IMG/VR virus record: IMGVR_UViG_3300033978_000437
Length of the DNA stretch: 64,000 nucleotides
DNA from: a virus
Direction: 5' to 3' (one strand)
Shown piece after piece: positions 1 to 23,042 of this stretch; the stretch's first letter is position 1; each line of letters begins with the position of its first letter. Under the pieces are notes generated by a model that had not been told where the DNA came from, ran no database searches, and saw only the letters and a list, made by a program, of their open reading frames with translations. The position numbers and the translations under genes were made by a program.

Positions 1-5533
<5,533 letters not shown>

Positions 5534-14267: not shown

Positions 14268-15824
14268 TCAAATGCAACGACCACCAATTATGGTAGCTCG
14301 TACTTGTTCAGACATATATAAAGCGGGTAGTAGGCTCTCTGCATTTACCATACATGGAAAAGAAGATAAATTCTCCTCATACCCTGCACTCGTTTCCGTA
14401 CCCAAGGTCTCCATGATAACATGAGTGTCGTCATAGACCAATTCAACATTTAATAACATTAAGGTATGTGGGGGCTGAATTTTGCGTAACTGGTCAGAAG
14501 GCACGAAAGGAAGTCGAGTTGTTCTAGAAATTCCAGCCTTAATTTTTACTACATAAGCGTTATTGCGTAAAACATTATCTGTAAGAAATTGTAGTGGGTT
14601 TATCATACCGGGGAGCATGGCAGCAGTTGGTTGCCCTATGGGGGTTGCTCGCCTATCTAAAAGCATGGCAAGCGTTTGATTTTTAGCTACCCCTGCTGCG
14701 TGCGTGTCGTCCCAAAACTTATCGGCATCAAATGGGAATCCACCAATTTTCCAAGATACCTTGGTAAATCCATCGACTCCAAGTTCAACAATTATAGGTG
14801 TTTCAATGTTTTCAAAGACTAATTCACCTTGGAACCCATAAGGTATAAGTCCTACTCCAGCCGAAAGTGCACCTATATCCTGCGGATCAATTTGTTTGCC
14901 TTGGTTAAACTCAAATACTTGGAGAAGATCTGTAAGACTATCCCCAGCTGTTACTTGCTGATGGATAAAGACGGTAGGTGTTGCTGTTAGAGGGAAACGA
15001 TAAACATGCTGATCTGTAAAGATATTAAGTTTATCTGCGTCTCTAATTATTCTTTCAACAACTTCTTTTGCCTCTATTACTAAAGGCACTCCAAAGGCAG
15101 CAGCTAAGGCTAGCTGTTGCGTGCGAATGCTTGTTCCGCTTACAAAAGCATCAAATATTGCATTAATGAATTGCTTATAGTTTTCGCTGGATTTTAATTG
15201 CAAGCGAAGAACATAGCCAAATTGCTTGTAAGTCGTGTACCAATCCCACTTTCCACGATACATCCACAATACTATTTCTTTATCTACAATTTCACCGCTA
15301 TCGTTTAATAAATCTCGTTTCGCTATTAGATTGTTTTTAAATGGATTCTCTCGAAAAACGATGGTTGTGTCTTCTAACCAATAGTCCACTCCTTGAACTA
15401 GTTCCACAGTAGGGTTTGTCAGCCGATTGAATATTAATTTTACTTCTACCAGCCCTCTAGGTTTAGTAAGCACAAAATAAGGAGTGGATAAAGCTTGACC
15501 ATAAGTTAGCGAATTATCGGAAATATAAGTTTGTGAAGTCTGCTCGTTATGCTTGGGCAGTAAGTTTGTATCTATATTTAAATCCGTCTCACGAAAACGC
15601 AAAGCATACCAGTTGTCTTGATGAAATATTGGTACCTTAAATCTAGATATGCTATTCACAAGCTCCATAAGTTGAGCATAGGTTTGCTGTGCCATTTGCC
15701 CTGTCACTTCGGTTAAATCCGAAATTAACTTATTACCTTGATAAGTTGTTGCCCAAAAACTTCCTAAAAGATTTAAAAGTAAATCGGCATTATCTAAATC
15801 ATTCTGTGGGTAGCGATATGCCAT
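14268..15824 (-). CDS. Putative baseplate wedge subunit
   Basis: 518 aa; LLGSFW...YKQFGYVL...YKQFINAIFDAF...LAAAFGVP pattern; synteny with baseplate J. Confidence 0.45.
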   Translation of the reverse strand: MAYRYPQNDLDNADLLLNLLGSFWATTYQGNKLISDLTEVTGQMAQQTYAQLMELVNSISRFKVPIFHQDNWYALRFRETDLNIDTNLLPKHNEQTSQTYISDNSLTYGQALSTPYFVLTKPRGLVEVKLIFNRLTNPTVELVQGVDYWLEDTTIVFRENPFKNNLIAKRDLLNDSGEIVDKEIVLWMYRGKWDWYTTYKQFGYVLRLQLKSSENYKQFINAIFDAFVSGTSIRTQQLALAAAFGVPLVIEAKEVVERIIRDADKLNIFTDQHVYRFPLTATPTVFIHQQVTAGDSLTDLLQVFEFNQGKQIDPQDIGALSAGVGLIPYGFQGELVFENIETPIIVELGVDGFTKVSWKIGGFPFDADKFWDDTHAAGVAKNQTLAMLLDRRATPIGQPTAAMLPGMINPLQFLTDNVLRNNAYVVKIKAGISRTTRLPFVPSDQLRKIQPPHTLMLLNVELVYDDTHVIMETLGTETSAGYEENLSSFPCMVNAESLLPALYMSEQVRATIIGGRCI

Positions 15825-16156
15825 TATTTACCCTGCTCTGGATGGTACAAACGTTTTAAAAACCAGTTTAATGCCATGCTCATCACTTGGTTTAAAAGGA
15901 AACTACCAATAAAGAAAAAGATAAGACCGCCTGTGATAAACTTAACAGCTTGTTTGCGTATTTGTTCTTCTGTGCCATTAGGATTAGCTTCATACGCTTT
16001 CCTTACTGCAAGTGCAACTCGACGAACATCTTCTCGCTTTTTTAGCAGATCGTGTGTGAGCCGTTTAGCTGCAAGAGTCACCCTAGTTTTAGGGAAATTA
16101 GACATTGCACAGCCTTGCTCATTGCAACATTCTTCTGTTAATTCTGTCCAGTTCAT
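15824..16156 (-). CDS. Small membrane protein (holin-like candidate)
   Basis: C-terminal hydrophobic helix FITGGLIFFFIGSFLLNQVMSMALNWFL; last gene of the protease cassette. Confidence 0.4.
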   Translation of the reverse strand: MNWTELTEECCNEQGCAMSNFPKTRVTLAAKRLTHDLLKKREDVRRVALAVRKAYEANPNGTEEQIRKQAVKFITGGLIFFFIGSFLLNQVMSMALNWFLKRLYHPEQGK

Positions 16157-16434
16157 TGGGGTTTCACTTTGATATTAATGGGAGAATAATCAATTTCAAC
16201 TTCCACGCCATCAGCCCCTGCAGTAAGAGAAGACATAGTAGTTCTTATGTTAAGGGGGCCGACCGCCATACTTACCTTAGCCGGAGGATTAAAAGTCATC
16301 ACCCCTTGTTTGATCTTAATGTCTTGCACTTCTGAAAAATCTAAACGTTTACCTTCGTGTTCCACTACACCTCGTTGCAGCAAACTGCGTAACAAGTCAT
16401 AAGCAAATGAAGGAATTTTGACTGGATAGTTCAT
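16153..16434 (-). CDS. Hypothetical protein (93 aa)
   Basis: Coupled to neighbours by 4-nt overlap; beta-rich; no recognisable motif. Confidence 0.6.
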   Translation of the reverse strand: MNYPVKIPSFAYDLLRSLLQRGVVEHEGKRLDFSEVQDIKIKQGVMTFNPPAKVSMAVGPLNIRTTMSSLTAGADGVEVEIDYSPINIKVKPQ

Positions 16435-16475
16435 ATGTTTCCATTAGAACCTAACTGGTTCTTTAGAGTTTAACT

Positions 16476-16874
16476 TCATTTACTTGGGGTACCAGTAGAT
16501 TGACGGACTGTGCTGCCTCTACGAAATAGCCCACGAGAAGTAGTCGAAGAAAAAGAAGGTTCGACTTCTACCGCTTCTCTAACTTCAATTAACTTAGGTG
16601 AGGTAGGAGCTACAATAGCAGGTTCTCCTACCAACCGATTTACATTTGCATCGATCTTTTGTAATATCATTTTCTGCTCGGTTAGCAGCTCTAACTGAGT
16701 CTTTTGATTGCTAAGGATAGCTTCATTTAAATCTTTATCAAAGCTAGCTTGTACGCTTGCGGGTAGCTCCGTAGATGTAGAAGCAGAGCTAATAGGTCGA
16801 AGAACTATAAAACTTATAAAGCAGATCAACCCAAATGCAAACGCATTAAGAATAACTGTTAATAGATTTTTCAT
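16476..16874 (-). CDS. Membrane-anchored coiled-coil protein (spanin-like candidate)
   Basis: N-terminal TM segment LLTVILNAFAFGLICFISFIVL followed by a heptad-rich helix (LNEAILSNQKTQLELLTEQKMILQKIDANV). Confidence 0.4.
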   Translation of the reverse strand: MKNLLTVILNAFAFGLICFISFIVLRPISSASTSTELPASVQASFDKDLNEAILSNQKTQLELLTEQKMILQKIDANVNRLVGEPAIVAPTSPKLIEVREAVEVEPSFSSTTSRGLFRRGSTVRQSTGTPSK

Positions 16875-17692
16875 TCTGGTTTTAACCTCATTTTGTAGTA
16901 AGGAGAATTATTATACCAATCAACTGGAACAGCTTCCTTGTTGCCCATCAACCCAATTGCAGCCGTATCTGAATACTCTATCATCTGTTTCCAAGCCTTG
17001 GGTGTAATCAAATAACCGCCATCTGCCCATGAGTTGGCAGCTCTAAGATTACCATCTTTGTCATAGCCTAAAACACACATTGCATGCCCACCGCCACTGC
17101 GTCGTGGTTGATAACTCCGCACAATTCGATCATCAGGTATATATCCATCGTAATAAGCAATACCAAAGTTAATTGCACCTCCGCCACCAATAAAATCTAA
17201 TACCTTGTCATGATCATCTGGAACTTCCCATAAAGACAGTGCCTTGTAAGGAAGTGCAGCTTCATAGTTGGCAGCGCTTAAAATAGCTTCTCGATCTGCC
17301 CTTCTAGGATAACCACTAGGATAACCAGTAAGAGATTCAGGACAACAGCCATATTCAAGACCAACTTGGCATCCTCCGGAGATAGTAGAGCCATCATCGG
17401 AGCCAAGAAGTCCATCTAATTTCTGAGAAGAAAGATAAGCAAAAATCTCAGATAGCTGTACAGTTTCACCTCGTACCAAGGCTAATCGTTCTAGCACTGA
17501 GCTAAGTGAATGACCTTGGCAACTTCCAATTTGTCCTTGGTCTTCGTTGCGATGCCACTTAATGTCTACTTCTGCGGGGCGGGCAAATGCTTTCCATAAA
17601 GGGGTAGACATGGGAACTCGAGAAAGACTACGAATAAAGCTGTAATCTTCTTTTTCTTTTTTCCAATTACCTGACATTTTTGTTTCACTCAT
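16871..17692 (-). CDS. Papain-family (C1A-like) cysteine peptidase
   Basis: Catalytic motifs DQGQIGSCQGHS (oxyanion Gln, Cys), GGGHAMCVLGY (His) and ANSW (Asn). Confidence 0.9.
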   Translation of the reverse strand: MSETKMSGNWKKEKEDYSFIRSLSRVPMSTPLWKAFARPAEVDIKWHRNEDQGQIGSCQGHSLSSVLERLALVRGETVQLSEIFAYLSSQKLDGLLGSDDGSTISGGCQVGLEYGCCPESLTGYPSGYPRRADREAILSAANYEAALPYKALSLWEVPDDHDKVLDFIGGGGAINFGIAYYDGYIPDDRIVRSYQPRRSGGGHAMCVLGYDKDGNLRAANSWADGGYLITPKAWKQMIEYSDTAAIGLMGNKEAVPVDWYNNSPYYKMRLKPE

Positions 17693-18045
17693 TTTGCATA
17701 GCTCCTTAATAGTTTTTCATGTGCCTTGGCAGACCATCCGCCTTGTTTGACAAAATAATCTTGTTCGCTTTTTGCTAGCTCTTTAAAGGCAGCTTTGCGG
17801 GCAGGTTCTTGTCCTGCTGCAATAAAATCCCAAGCTTCTTGTTCTGTCTTAATATCGCCAGAAGCCAGCTTGTCCGCTGCAGCTTGAGCATGGGCCCGCC
17901 ATAGCTGCTCATAGGTCGCAAATACTTGCTTAGGAGAGGCAACGGGGGTACTTGGAACAAATGCAGTTGAATCGCATTGAAAAGGCCCAATCAATAAGAA
18001 TAGCCCAAAAGCACCACTCAGCAGTCCTAGATAACGCAAAGACAT
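17689..18045 (-). CDS. Small exported or membrane-anchored helical protein
   Basis: Hydrophobic N-terminus LGLLSGAFGLFLLIGPFQC; helical remainder. Confidence 0.5.
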   Translation of the reverse strand: MSLRYLGLLSGAFGLFLLIGPFQCDSTAFVPSTPVASPKQVFATYEQLWRAHAQAAADKLASGDIKTEQEAWDFIAAGQEPARKAAFKELAKSEQDYFVKQGGWSAKAHEKLLRSYAK

Positions 18046-18060
18046 AGTAAGTCTCCTAAG

Positions 18061-18456
18061 TTAATTTTTTACTTCTTCAGGTTTAACGACATTAGGGGTA
18101 CAGTCATTGCGTCTAGCTAGTTTAGCTTCCGTAATGGCTACTTGTGCTTCTGTCATCTCGGCTTTCGCATACTCCCACCAAATGGAAGGATTAGCATTAG
18201 GTGAAGTCGCTTCAATAATTTTAAGAAACTCCCCAATACCTGCAGGTGCAGGGGCATCGCTATTGCGAGTTTTAGGAGCGGGGGTAGGTGCGGGAGGAAG
18301 AATGTTTGGAATATCAGAAACAAAGCGAGAGGTTAGCTCTTTAATCCAAGGAATTGCAAAAAAAACTATTCCAATAGCTAGCAGCACAATGGTTAAAATA
18401 GGTTTAACCCAAGGAATTAACCCTGCCAAATCTATTACAATTTCACCTATAATCAC
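18061..18456 (-). CDS. Single-TM membrane protein with Pro-rich linker
   Basis: KPILTIVLLAIGIVFFAIPWI, then PPAPTPAP. Confidence 0.55.
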   Translation of the reverse strand: MIIGEIVIDLAGLIPWVKPILTIVLLAIGIVFFAIPWIKELTSRFVSDIPNILPPAPTPAPKTRNSDAPAPAGIGEFLKIIEATSPNANPSIWWEYAKAEMTEAQVAITEAKLARRNDCTPNVVKPEEVKN

Positions 18457-18468
18457 AGGACACCTCCT

Positions 18469-19371
18469 TTAAACACAAGTGACAACTAATTTCTGCCCTT
18501 TGTGCAACTCTACGGCTAATGTATTTTTTGTTTCTTTCTTAACCCCTACTGCATTTTCATTTTTCCCATATAGTTTTTGAATGCGCTTAATATCATCATT
18601 ATCTTGGGGACCGCTTACAAAAGGGTTATAGTAGGGGGCCATCAGTGCCCCAGCATTCTTTGAGTGGTCTAACCCAAGAAGATGCCCAAATTCATGGCAA
18701 GCAACATTTAACATCATAACTCCACGATCCGTAGGCTGAGAAATCCAAGTTTCATCCAGATCGAACCGCATTGTTAGTTGTTGGTCATTCCCTTTTGGCA
18801 TATAAGCCCAAGCTAGCGTACCACCTCTCCCATCAAAATTATGCTGTATTCCCTTACCTGTAGCAATCGCAATGTCTGCTTTCTTTGCGTCTTTGATTCG
18901 GGTAATGTTTAAACCGCACACATCGTCCCAAGCTTTAAAGGCTGCAGCTAGTATTTTATCTTGCGTTGGCTTGCCTAGCCCTGTGACATACTGTTGAACA
19001 GCAAAAGTAAGCCCATTCTTATTCCATCGATTACGCTGCTTCTCCGCAACATCTTGAGCTTCCATAAACTGGATATGTTGTTTATTTTTAGGATCAAGCT
19101 TATCAGGGCAGCCACAACGAGGAGTTTCCATGGCTCGTAAAGTTTTAGGCCCAATAACCCCATCTACTTTCAAATTAAACATGCGTTGAAATGTTTTGAC
19201 TGCTGCTTCGAGCTTGGCATAGTCCATGTTCTGAAGCAAATCAATGGCGACATAACCAAAGAAAGTTAGGTAGTCCATCGCAAAGTGCATTGCTTGTGGA
19301 GAGTTTTTATCACTTCCATTTTTCTTAAATAAACGGATAGCTTCTACCCGCCCTTTTTGCTCTAGTGACAT
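18469..19371 (-). CDS. Matrixin/MMP-like (M10A) zinc metalloprotease with pro-domain and cysteine switch
   Basis: Pro-domain YLTFFGY...AVKTFQRMFNLKVDGVIGPKTLRAM; PRCGCPD; RWNKNGLTF; FDGRGGTLAWAY; FDLDETW; HEFGHLLGLDHS; Met-turn ALMAPY; DDIKRIQKLYG. SD GGAG upstream. Confidence 0.93.
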   Translation of the reverse strand: MSLEQKGRVEAIRLFKKNGSDKNSPQAMHFAMDYLTFFGYVAIDLLQNMDYAKLEAAVKTFQRMFNLKVDGVIGPKTLRAMETPRCGCPDKLDPKNKQHIQFMEAQDVAEKQRNRWNKNGLTFAVQQYVTGLGKPTQDKILAAAFKAWDDVCGLNITRIKDAKKADIAIATGKGIQHNFDGRGGTLAWAYMPKGNDQQLTMRFDLDETWISQPTDRGVMMLNVACHEFGHLLGLDHSKNAGALMAPYYNPFVSGPQDNDDIKRIQKLYGKNENAVGVKKETKNTLAVELHKGQKLVVTCV

Positions 19372-19385
19372 ATGTCAACTCCTAT

Positions 19386-21047
19386 TTATTTTGCCGTATA
19401 AATGGTCGAAACAATATTAACTGATACCTTAGAAATTTCTGTAAAAAACTGTACAGTTTTAGCCGTAACCATTTTAGCCGGTTGGTCTGGTATTATCAAC
19501 GAATCTGAATCTCTTAGATACTGCATTGTCCCATCTGGATTGCGTATGCGTCCAAACAAGTCTAAGCCAGTTACACTTAAACTATTTTGTAAAAATCCGT
19601 GTACTGCTTCAATAATTCGGGAACCGTCTAACCTACCTATAAAATCGGTGCTGTTCACTACATCCACAACAGCTGCCTTGATCGCTGCAATCGAAGGAGC
19701 AGTATCACCCGCTGTTTTATTAATGGTTAAAGTAACTTCAACAAAACAAGGAATAGGGGCTTTAACTAATGCGTCTGCAGCATAACTTCGCACATCCCGA
19801 CTTCCAATCAGTTCTTGAATTTGTCGGATAAAAGGTGTTCCCGTAACATCACAAAAATATTGAGCTGTTTGTCCTATTGTAAGTGTAGTAACAGAAGTGG
19901 AGGTATCTACAAAGCGTATAACTGTAGCTTGGAATGCCGAATAAGCACCTTCAGCTACCGTTGCGATATCTGGTAAAAAACCCGCTGCGGTTAAATCGTT
20001 AGAGCGGGTATCACTAATAGGTTCAAATCCGGAATTTAAACCTGCATCTATTACATTTTTTATTTTTGTAACTTCATAAAATCCAGGTACATCGTCCTTA
20101 CCTATTGAAAATTGCCAAGTGCTACTAGTTGCTGCAATTTCAACGCATACTGCTGTAACTAATAAGCGGGTACGCTGTAAAGGCAATTGACCTCGAATAT
20201 ACCAGTCTACCCTTCCACCATAACTAATGGGGAACACTGTATGCCTATCCCGTAGCATTTCTGCATCGCCATACCCAATGATAGATTGGTTAGTAACTGA
20301 ATCAAATGCGGGTATTGATCGTAGAAAAGATCGCATATTAGTGCGGTTAGATAAAGTTTTTGCAGCAATACCTAATTGAAGTTCTTGCAGCAATTCTGTA
20401 TTAGTTTCCGCCCCTGTGCCATCTAAGAAATTAGAAGTAACATAGCTAGTCACATAATTTGTAATAGATCGGGTAGGTACAATCGAATCACCAGCGTTTA
20501 ACTTGTAAGTAGCCCCAATGCTCTCTGCTTCCACCTCTATGGTAAATGCCCAATTACCATTGCTTAAAAGCTGTAATAATCGGTCAGTGTCTAAAGATAC
20601 TTGTGTGGTTACTGGCCGAGATGTAAATGTTTTGGTAGCAAAATATCGTTTACCATTAGACTCGAATGAAAAGTTAATTGGGATATTAATGGAGCGTGCT
20701 TGGTTCAACTCAATAGTAATGGACCCAATTGCTTTAGTTCCAATTTTACGAGTTATACCCCAGTTAGATAGCACTTCGTCTACTACGGTATCGTCCGCTA
20801 ATGTAGGGTCTATCTGAATCTGCTGTAAGCTTCTTGCAGATTGATAACGGCGTAAACTAGCACGGATTGAAGCCTCTAGCACGGCATGGTAATAGGCAAC
20901 AGTATCCTTAAATACCCCTCGCTTTAGATCCAGACTAGGATTTAATTCCTGCAGCTGAGTCGCAAGCCGGTCTAACAGCTGTTGCACATCTGCTGAATTT
21001 AATGAAGTTAGGCTGGACAAGTCTGCACTAGAAAAACTTAATGCCAT
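19386..21047 (-). CDS. Baseplate J-like wedge protein
   Basis: RGVFKD, DEVLSNWGITRKIGTKAIGSITI and DGTGAETNTELL patterns typical of Baseplate_J. Confidence 0.8.
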   Translation of the reverse strand: MALSFSSADLSSLTSLNSADVQQLLDRLATQLQELNPSLDLKRGVFKDTVAYYHAVLEASIRASLRRYQSARSLQQIQIDPTLADDTVVDEVLSNWGITRKIGTKAIGSITIELNQARSINIPINFSFESNGKRYFATKTFTSRPVTTQVSLDTDRLLQLLSNGNWAFTIEVEAESIGATYKLNAGDSIVPTRSITNYVTSYVTSNFLDGTGAETNTELLQELQLGIAAKTLSNRTNMRSFLRSIPAFDSVTNQSIIGYGDAEMLRDRHTVFPISYGGRVDWYIRGQLPLQRTRLLVTAVCVEIAATSSTWQFSIGKDDVPGFYEVTKIKNVIDAGLNSGFEPISDTRSNDLTAAGFLPDIATVAEGAYSAFQATVIRFVDTSTSVTTLTIGQTAQYFCDVTGTPFIRQIQELIGSRDVRSYAADALVKAPIPCFVEVTLTINKTAGDTAPSIAAIKAAVVDVVNSTDFIGRLDGSRIIEAVHGFLQNSLSVTGLDLFGRIRNPDGTMQYLRDSDSLIIPDQPAKMVTAKTVQFFTEISKVSVNIVSTIYTAK

Positions 21048-22304: not shown

Positions 22305-23042
22305 TTACCTCGGAATAAAAGGAGACAATTTTTGTTCTTGATCCAGCAATTGCTGTATCTTAGTTTTACGCTGGGTAATAGCACCTGGGCTGCGATTAAG
22401 CTTGGCAGCAATTTCTTGATTTGATAGTTTTTTATTTCCACGCATTCCCAATGTCAGTTCCATGATGCGCTGGTCTAAAGGACTTAGCCCTTGATAAACT
22501 ACTTCACCCCATAGGTCTGCACTAGCTTGCTGGTTAGGAACTACACTTGGAGCACCTCCCGCTAATGGGTCAATTGCATCTAATCTTCCTGTGTTAACTC
22601 CGGGCTGATAGCTACGAATCTTTGCAAGACGGGGCATAGCTATCCCCAGCTTGTCTGATAGTTCTGCGTCAGTAGGATCTCGCCCAAGCTCGTCTGACAG
22701 CTCTTGTGTAGATCCGTGTAACCTTTGATTCTCTAGCAAGATGCGTTCAGGTACGCTTATTACTTGATGCTGCTGCTGGTTAATCCTACGAAGCCCTTGC
22801 ATCTGGGTTAACAAGTGCGACTGAAGGCGGGACCGCTTTGGATCGTACTTACGCACTGCGTCCAATGCTAACAGCTTGGCACGGCTAGACGTTAATGGAC
22901 TATCTGCACCATACATCTTGACCCCCTTTTGTACTATTGGATCAAGTGCTTTTAGTAAGGCAGCGTTGCCTTCTGGTGTTTGATTCTGCTGCCAGCTTTG
23001 AAATGCTGGTTTATATTCGTCTTCTAAATAATCGTCCATCAT
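22305..23042 (-). CDS. Sigma-70-family sigma factor (regions 2-4)
   Basis: AVRKYDPKR-SRLQSHL (region 2); ISVP...ELSDELGRDPTDAELSDKLGI (region 3); LSPLDQRIMELTLG...LSNQEIAAKLNRSPGAITQRK (region 4 HTH). Confidence 0.88.
   Translation of the reverse strand: MMDDYLEDEYKPAFQSWQQNQTPEGNAALLKALDPIVQKGVKMYGADSPLTSSRAKLLALDAVRKYDPKRSRLQSHLLTQMQGLRRINQQQHQVISVPERILLENQRLHGSTQELSDELGRDPTDAELSDKLGIAMPRLAKIRSYQPGVNTGRLDAIDPLAGGAPSVVPNQQASADLWGEVVYQGLSPLDQRIMELTLGMRGNKKLSNQEIAAKLNRSPGAITQRKTKIQQLLDQEQKLSPFIPR

Follow-up and report, generated by a model that had tools for sequence, protein, structure and literature searches.

To our knowledge, every well-studied tailed phage of walled bacteria lyses its host with a peptidoglycan hydrolase, and usually carries another for entry. 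Among the bacterial matrix metalloproteases (MMPs or matrixins; MEROPS M10A), karilysin of Tannerella forsythia has a signal peptide for secretion, while its propeptide is very short and contains no cysteine switch. No description of phage matrixins or of M10 endolysins was found in the literature. Among viruses of animals, granuloviruses carry an MMP gene (PMC3496565, PMC4500397), and V-CATH, a papain-like cathepsin of baculoviruses that acts with ChiA, is a latent protease which destroys proteinaceous host barriers late in infection and promotes the spread of progeny (PMC9965964). The DNA considered here is a stretch of 64,000 nucleotides (nt) of the IMG/VR virus record IMGVR_UViG_3300033978_000437 (hereafter the window), which corresponds to the minus strand of a 178,753-bp viral contig (positions 114690-178689). 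Within a baseplate operon it carries a block of seven genes (g1 to g7), the first of which specifies a pro-MMP zymogen and the fourth a papain-like (C1) cysteine peptidase. The phage family to which the contig belongs shows no recognisable peptidoglycan hydrolase; what its members do conserve, always at the same point of the baseplate operon, is an MMP zymogen of the animal type.

The pro-matrix metalloprotease g1

The g1 protein matches the Pfam families Peptidase_M10 (E 3e-36; PF00413 score of 125 bits against a cut-off of 24) and PG_binding_1 (E 3e-10). It consists of a prodomain (approximately residues 25-81), a cysteine switch with the sequence PRCGCPD (residues 84-90), a catalytic domain (residues 115-269) and a C-terminal tail of 30 amino acids (aa). 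The catalytic domain bears HEFGHLLGLDHS and a Met-turn; the zinc motif HExxHxxGxxH reads HEFGHLLGLDH in g1 (residues 226-236) and the Met-turn reads ALMAPYY. Across 121 homologues, H226, E227, H230 and H236 are conserved in 100% and M244 in 99% of sequences, the switch residues R85, C86, G87 and D90 (R-C-G-x-x-D) are invariant, and the tail is poorly conserved. Because the switch, the zinc motif and the Met-turn are all conserved in these homologues, the MMP appears to be under strong constraint as an active zymogen. A profile built from 19 g1 relatives aligns to both the prodomain and the catalytic parts of proMMP-1 (1SU3) with an E-value of 7e-44. Consistent with this, the AlphaFold model of g1 (predicted local distance difference test score, pLDDT, of 79.8) returned proMMP-9, proMMP-3 and proMMP-10 as the nearest folds, with target-normalised template modelling scores of 0.81-0.84. 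Neither an N-terminal hydrophobic span or signal peptide, nor a hemopexin domain, nor any recognisable attachment domain was found in g1.

The PG_binding_1 match, which is the only one in the whole genome, was considered as a sign that g1 binds peptidoglycan. This was rejected, as both profile and fold comparisons align the segment to the ordinary prodomain of proMMP-1, -3 and -9. The matches of g1 to 'endolysin' entries of the PHROG database are confined to a prodomain-like segment (residues 36-140).

Three features distinguish g1 from cellular matrixins, the first being its lack of a signal peptide. Secondly, the switch contains an extra cysteine (C-G-C), which occurs in 93% of the 121 homologues and 24 of the 56 phage copies and is absent from all cellular homologues; those cellular proteins that have a switch read RCG[V/M/H] where the phage copies may have C-G-C. 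Thirdly, in the HMMER alignment to 1SU3, g1 has other residues in place of two of the four ligands that bind the structural zinc in MMP-1 (LAW for LAH, and TMR for DAH); W188 and F203 do not vary, and M201 hardly varies, in an alignment of 19 sequences. As read from these alignments, the structural zinc site (His, Asp, His and His in MMP-1) is probably not kept. Metagenomes yielded 432 MMP homologues, and the identity of cellular homologues to g1 is 32% at most. The g1 protein is a distinctive new member of the known matrixin family.

Organisation of the locus and its conservation

The initial annotation had described a baseplate operon interrupted by seven tightly coupled genes, which specify an MMP, a papain-family protease, four membrane or exported proteins and one hypothetical protein. 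Coordinates, gaps and flanking genes confirm the arrangement, and Pfam matches, profiles and hydropathy confirm the gene content. Exactly seven open reading frames (ORFs), all on the minus strand, occupy positions 15824-19371, between a Baseplate_J gene and a gene of 518 aa. The features are as follows, with transmembrane abbreviated as TM.

19386..21047, minus strand: Baseplate_J-like wedge gene, 553 aa, the upstream flank (matches phrog_6, a baseplate wedge family, at E 1.7e-19, and Pfam Baseplate_J when the window was scanned)
18469..19371, minus strand: g1, pro-MMP zymogen, 300 aa (Pfam, profile and predicted fold)
18061..18456, minus strand: g2, bitopic membrane protein, 131 aa (hydropathy and alignment)
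17689..18045, minus strand: g3, small protein with a signal anchor, 118 aa (hydropathy and alignment)
16871..17692, minus strand: g4, papain-like (C1) cysteine peptidase, 273 aa (catalytic residues, and profile match to 3OIS)
16476..16874, minus strand: g5, bitopic membrane protein, 132 aa (hydropathy and alignment)
16153..16434, minus strand: g6, soluble beta-rich orphan protein, 93 aa (conserved in seven relatives; model pLDDT 79.7)
15824..16156, minus strand: g7, tail-anchored membrane protein with a C-terminal TM span, 110 aa (hydropathy and alignment)
14268..15824, minus strand: 518-aa gene of the tail/baseplate region, the downstream flank (orthologues, 40-91% identical, lie behind the slot described below in every family locus)

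The intergenic gaps are 14 nt between Baseplate_J and g1, 12 nt between g1 and g2, 15 nt between g2 and g3, and 41 nt between g5 and g6. The remaining neighbours overlap, by 4 nt in the case of g3/g4, g4/g5 and g6/g7, and by 1 nt between g7 and the 518-aa gene. No terminator-like sites were found on the coding strand inside the seven-gene block, and promoter-like sites in the block are not commoner than in shuffled sequence. Given this tight coupling and the absence of terminators, the seven genes are probably part of the late baseplate transcript. The g5-g6 gap (window 16435-16475), the only sizeable one, holds an inverted repeat (GAACC-AGTTA-GGTTC) that was not scored as a terminator.

The C1 peptidase g4 carries the papain catalytic set (Q52, C58, H203 and N220) in the expected order and context, with all four residues invariant in 22 homologues, and its profile matches a solved bacterial C1 protease (PDB 3OIS) over residues 46-222 with an E-value of 8e-22. 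Ahead of this region lies a conserved N-terminal extension of 45 aa, without a signal peptide. The g4 sequence itself has no PF00112 match at E <= 0.1; two close homologues carry precomputed PF00112 assignments, and in the nearest ESM Atlas clusters this family is present in 54-98% of members. About 200 relatives were found, mostly viral, and the closest match in a GenBank phage, Burkholderia phage FLC9, is only 28% identical.

Four of the five other proteins carry a single hydrophobic span, which is N-terminal in g2, g3 and g5 and C-terminal in g7, and TM proteins are enriched in the block (4 of 7 genes, against 18 of the 205 other ORFs of the genome; Fisher one-sided p = 0.0025). Behind its N-terminal span, g2 has a conserved domain of some 55 aa at the C-terminus, and its homologues, only 26 in number, all belong to the same phage clade and are unnamed and without Pfam domains. 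Both g3 and g5 are helical and N-terminally anchored; g3 has a conserved helical domain and some 50 clusters of unnamed homologues, while g5 has a coiled-coil-like middle and a basic C-terminus, and varies in length among relatives. The model of g6 had no fold match in PDB or BFVD. The suggestion that the membrane proteins provide a holin/spanin-like export function found no support, as g2, g3, g5 and g7 had no Pfam or PHROG match to a holin or spanin family at E <= 0.1, and alignments show that a lipobox is absent from every gene of the block. A role for g3 as an o-spanin lipoprotein was rejected, since the cysteine behind its hydrophobic span is not conserved in relatives. Holins are very diverse, and such silence of the profiles is compatible with a holin function.

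Comparison with related phages (L099-L110, L139, L014, L015, L017 and L019, the last four from other collections) shows that the block is not a unit. The MMP gene lies directly behind Baseplate_J in 12 of 12 IMG/VR family loci and in the four loci from other collections, making 16 distinct loci, and the common gene order is tape measure, 157-aa, 263-aa, 656-aa, sigma-like, 252-aa, 162-aa, Baseplate_J, MMP, a variable slot, 518-aa, 194-aa, 606-aa and 317-aa. The slot behind the MMP contains one to six genes, and three sets of genes occur there: all or most of g2-g7; an exported 520-716-aa protein with an SCxxCH motif, a PSCyt1-domain protein and an exported protein of about 150 aa; or one exported protein of 114 aa. 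The cassette therefore comprises a fixed MMP gene and, behind it, a variable accessory slot in the form that it takes in one clade. The idea that the seven genes form one conserved system was not upheld when their conservation was checked, since no gene but the MMP is constant and the place of g2-g7 can be taken by other sets, there being at least three alternatives in all. Eight of the 12 IMG/VR family loci have the C1 peptidase; its absence from the other four, and from L014 and L017, led to the rejection of g4 as an obligate activator of the MMP. A sigma-70 region-3-like gene (window 22305-23042; orthologues in L014-L017) is also fixed in the baseplate module of all relatives. Since this sigma-factor gene is equally fixed, position in the baseplate operon alone is no proof of a structural role.

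The family phages are uncultured, come from lakes and seas, and have genomes of approximately 180-235 kb. This one syntenic family covers a range of 41-67% G+C, which implies hosts of very different base composition. Searches of 50,697 GenBank phage records returned no DNA match to the genome and no credible match to the MMP, with only two marginal MMP matches, both on what appears to be bacterial DNA filed under the wrong label. The GenBank entry 'Acinetobacter phage MD-2021a' (CAKLQH020000026.1:4171-14329, L170) has two 'Matrixin' genes beside dnaK, grpE, mltB and purK, and looks like a bacterial chromosome filed as a phage.

Wall hydrolases, host and proposed function

The initial annotation saw no muramidase, amidase or peptidoglycan endopeptidase in the block, and this finding can be extended to the whole contig and four relatives (194-235 kb; two have a completeness rating of 100%, and one has terminal repeats). 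When every contig ORF of at least 100 aa was scanned against Pfam, no wall-hydrolase family was returned (in one part of the scan this refers to the best 25 of 29 families, the rest being weaker than E 1e-4), and most ORFs of the phage have no Pfam match. Six-frame searches of the genome and the four relatives found no Phage_lysozyme, SLT, Amidase_2/3, GH19, GH25, GH108, M15_4, VanY, NlpC/P60 or CHAP domain, the searches for GH19 and GH108 being weaker, as the control genomes were silent for both. For M23 there were only sub-threshold matches, all within proteins longer than 1000 aa, an RNA polymerase subunit among them. Among the genes specific to a complete relative (G003, 204,794 bp) there was no wall hydrolase in the best 25 of 33 families, and no peptidoglycan-hydrolase domain was found in the tape measure, the hub or any tail gene.

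The search covers most of the genome: CheckV estimates the contig at 83%, but synteny with G003 joins its end to its start, and the genome is thus nearly complete. The contig breaks inside a giant collagen-like fibre gene (window 2-5533; contig start G000:C1:1-2500). An alternative holin candidate is a 117-aa coiled-coil protein with a C-terminal TM span, encoded about 9.4 kb past the end of the window (G000:C1:104970-105323); in a pooled scan neither this protein nor the accompanying 194-aa protein matched a wall-hydrolase family. A standard endolysin/holin pair elsewhere in the genome, which would speak against a non-canonical system, was looked for and not found.

Further evidence comes from about 45 other IMG/VR matrixin loci, of unrelated phage lineages. 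There, 15 of the 56 ORFs for phage MMPs are forms of about 200 aa whose N-terminus reads RRx[F/I][L/F] and continues with a hydrophobic stretch, resembling a twin-arginine translocation (Tat) signal (L127, L128, L129, L131, L132, L133, L141-L143, L145-L148, L153 and L156), and a remnant cysteine-switch peptide follows the Tat-like signal. Judged by these signals, such MMPs would have to act outside the cytoplasm and could not be parts of the virion. These short matrixins with Tat-like signals would make up an exported class of phage metalloprotease. Beside phage MMPs, genes for small membrane or exported proteins recur, examples being a 93-aa tail-anchored protein, the MMP and a 70-aa N-anchored protein, or the MMP with four small TM proteins behind it. 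When 125 MMP-neighbour proteins were scanned as a pool there was one holin-family match, which was not traceable to its protein; ten candidate small neighbours had no holin match, and a candidate from L155 had no match in GenBank phages. The commonest MMP neighbour across lineages is an exported family of 430-716 aa with an invariant S-C-x-x-C-H motif (haem-c-like) and no Pfam match (L117:10156-12072, L116:3807-5642, L107:9951-11720, L109:9882-11456, L017:8923-10833 and six more aligned). A neighbour family of 529-553 aa from other lineages was compared with Baseplate_J and with the 518-aa and 162-aa proteins of the baseplate module (p518 and p162), and is unrelated to them (hhalign probability <1%).

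Hints about the host are weak and come partly from other phages. A slot gene of one family member has a PSCyt1 domain (23.9 bits against a cut-off of 22), PSCyt1 (twice) and DUF1501 occur among the MMP neighbours of other lineages, and the bacterial ESM Atlas cluster nearest to g4 is mostly Planctomycetota. Homologues of the SCxxCH family were detected in 5 of 201 Planctomycetota, 2 of 201 Pseudomonadota, and none of 201 Bacteroidota and 201 Verrucomicrobiota genomes sampled. A planctomycete host is accordingly quite possible, though less likely than not. Nanopelagicales were rejected as host, since the best match in the genome collections, a 25.6-kb contig of a metagenome-assembled genome, is itself a member of the phage family (50.6% G+C) and probably misbinned. 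The notion of an attack on a proteinaceous wall is accordingly offered only conditionally.

Taken together, the block is tentatively regarded as a late-expressed, envelope-directed protease module for lysis or egress, set within the baseplate operon; we consider this quite possible, though far from assured. An envelope-directed role is favoured because related phage MMPs bear Tat-like signals and because membrane proteins are clustered in the block. In the proposed sequence of events, the baseplate genes and the block would be transcribed together late in infection, as their coupling and the lack of terminators suggest, and both proteases, whose motifs are present in the sequences, would build up in a presumably inactive state in the reducing cytoplasm. 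One or more membrane proteins of the g2, g5 or g7 type, or a holin encoded elsewhere, would then permeabilise the inner membrane, after which the oxidising periplasm could oxidise the phage-specific Cys-Gly-Cys pair of the switch and so free the zinc; g4, where present, may clip the MMP prodomain. Activation of animal proMMPs by oxidation and by thiol modification offers a precedent. The active proteases might finally cut envelope proteins (wall proteins, tethers or a surface layer) and in this way cause or complete lysis. Of the non-canonical lysis system put forward in the initial annotation, there remain the lack of a standard endolysin and an envelope-directed role, which is favoured; the unity of the seven genes and the holin/spanin identity of the membrane proteins are not supported. 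A more far-reaching proposal, probably too strong as it stands, is that this aquatic jumbo-phage family gave up peptidoglycan hydrolases altogether, and lyses or enters protein-rich, maybe planctomycete, hosts by means of a redox-gated MMP, helped in some clades by the C1 peptidase and membrane proteins.

Several points weigh against an envelope-directed lysis module. Matrixins cut ordinary L-peptide bonds, and we know of none that cuts peptidoglycan. The proteins g2-g7 have neither a holin or spanin match nor a conserved lipobox, and have conserved soluble domains. As many members of the family are without g2-g7, lysis across the family cannot depend on these genes, and the invariant position of the MMP right after Baseplate_J suggests a structural link. 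The structural proteins of this phage, and its proteins of unknown function, are very divergent, and a muralytic fold may lie unrecognised among the orphan ORFs. Planctomycetes were long thought to have protein walls, yet contain peptidoglycan (PMC4432640), and for this reason a planctomycete host alone would not explain the missing hydrolase.

The same structural link underlies a different explanation, in which g1, perhaps with g4, is carried in latent form on the baseplate as an entry enzyme, is activated extracellularly and, as the phage adsorbs or penetrates, breaks down a surface layer of protein on the host in place of a tail lysin. The constancy of the arrangement in all 16 family loci, the 14-nt gap to Baseplate_J with no terminator, the lack of a signal peptide on g1 and the missing hydrolase domain in tape measure, hub and tail genes speak in its favour. 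Yet the sigma-factor gene is just as fixed in the same module, g1 lacks a recognisable attachment domain and has a poorly conserved tail, and the related MMPs with Tat-like signals could hardly be virion parts; in other lineages, moreover, the MMP is not beside baseplate genes, and the 529-553-aa neighbour is no relative of Baseplate_J. A virion-borne enzyme is on this evidence somewhat unlikely. A processing role within the virion, in which g1 and/or g4 would mature the phage's own tail proteins, is very improbable. The obvious substrate would be the giant collagen-like fibre 10 kb downstream (window 2-5533; its collagen-repeat ORF exceeds 1844 aa and matches Pfam Collagen at E 2e-132), the complete relative G003 has two collagen-repeat ORFs, and collagenases are found among the matrixins. 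The link between MMP and fibre is weak, however, as only one of five MMP phages of other lineages has a collagen match above the cut-off. Cleavage of triple-helical collagen by MMPs requires the hemopexin domain, which g1 does not have, and Tat-exported homologues could not process virion proteins in the cytoplasm.

It is also conceivable, but unlikely, that the slot is a recombination hot spot for envelope-directed accessory genes without a shared task (for example superinfection exclusion, surface remodelling or exoenzymes for later use), and that lysis is carried out by an endolysin and holin of unrecognised fold encoded elsewhere. That three different gene sets occupy the same slot, that g2 is limited to one clade and that most ORFs of the phage lack any Pfam match would all fit, and the 117-aa tail-anchored protein could be the holin. 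Endolysin domains, however, are among the easiest phage functions to detect, and none was found in five genomes with eleven families and the full Pfam scan; the MMP, furthermore, is core to the family rather than variable.

Significance and comparison with known systems

If a protease does carry out the envelope work in these phages, it would represent a new chemistry of lysis or entry, a new gating of a lytic enzyme by a cysteine switch that opens on oxidation, and a source of enzymes that act on bacterial envelopes rich in protein; the suggested system, if confirmed, would be a new variant of the phage lytic machinery. Otherwise, an endolysin of unrecognised fold is still hidden in the family. 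In either case the finding bears on how matrixins evolved in organisms other than animals and plants.

Like the canonical holin-endolysin-spanin cassettes, the block has a proposed late hydrolase without a classical signal among small membrane proteins, but it differs from them in lacking a peptidoglycan-hydrolase domain, any match to a holin or spanin family and a lipoprotein partner, and in that the membrane genes are not conserved together with the enzyme. The signal-arrest-release (SAR) endolysin Lyz of phage P1 is caged by a disulfide and activated on leaving the cytoplasm; the activation proposed for g1 outside the reducing cytoplasm would, by analogy, resemble this redox caging.

At the protein level, g1 shares with the animal pro-MMPs (proMMP-7, or matrilysin, and the pro and catalytic parts of MMP-1, -3, -9 and -10) the three-helix prodomain, the PRCGxPD switch, the HExxHxxGxxH motif, the Met-turn and the fold. 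It departs from them in its lack of a signal peptide and of a hemopexin domain, in the extra switch cysteine, in the replacement of two structural-zinc ligands and in its location in a phage baseplate operon. With karilysin and other bacterial matrixins it has in common the matrixin catalytic domain (PDB 2XS4/4R3V, E ~2e-32), but unlike karilysin it retains a full animal-type prodomain and switch. For g4, the nearest solved structure is 3OIS, which we take to be xylellain of Xylella fastidiosa. Both have the papain catalytic set, and a short N-terminal extension instead of a long propeptide, while g4 differs in being phage-encoded, in having mostly viral relatives and in falling below the Pfam reporting threshold for PF00112. 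The nearest functional analogue of a viral pair of MMP and C1 protease is found in the baculoviruses, in V-CATH and the stromelysin-like MMP of betabaculoviruses, which bring about liquefaction of the host and thereby release of the virus (PMC9965964, PMC3496565). Those enzymes are proteins of the secretory pathway and have insect tissues rather than a bacterial envelope as their target, and the likeness to the phage pair is one of function.

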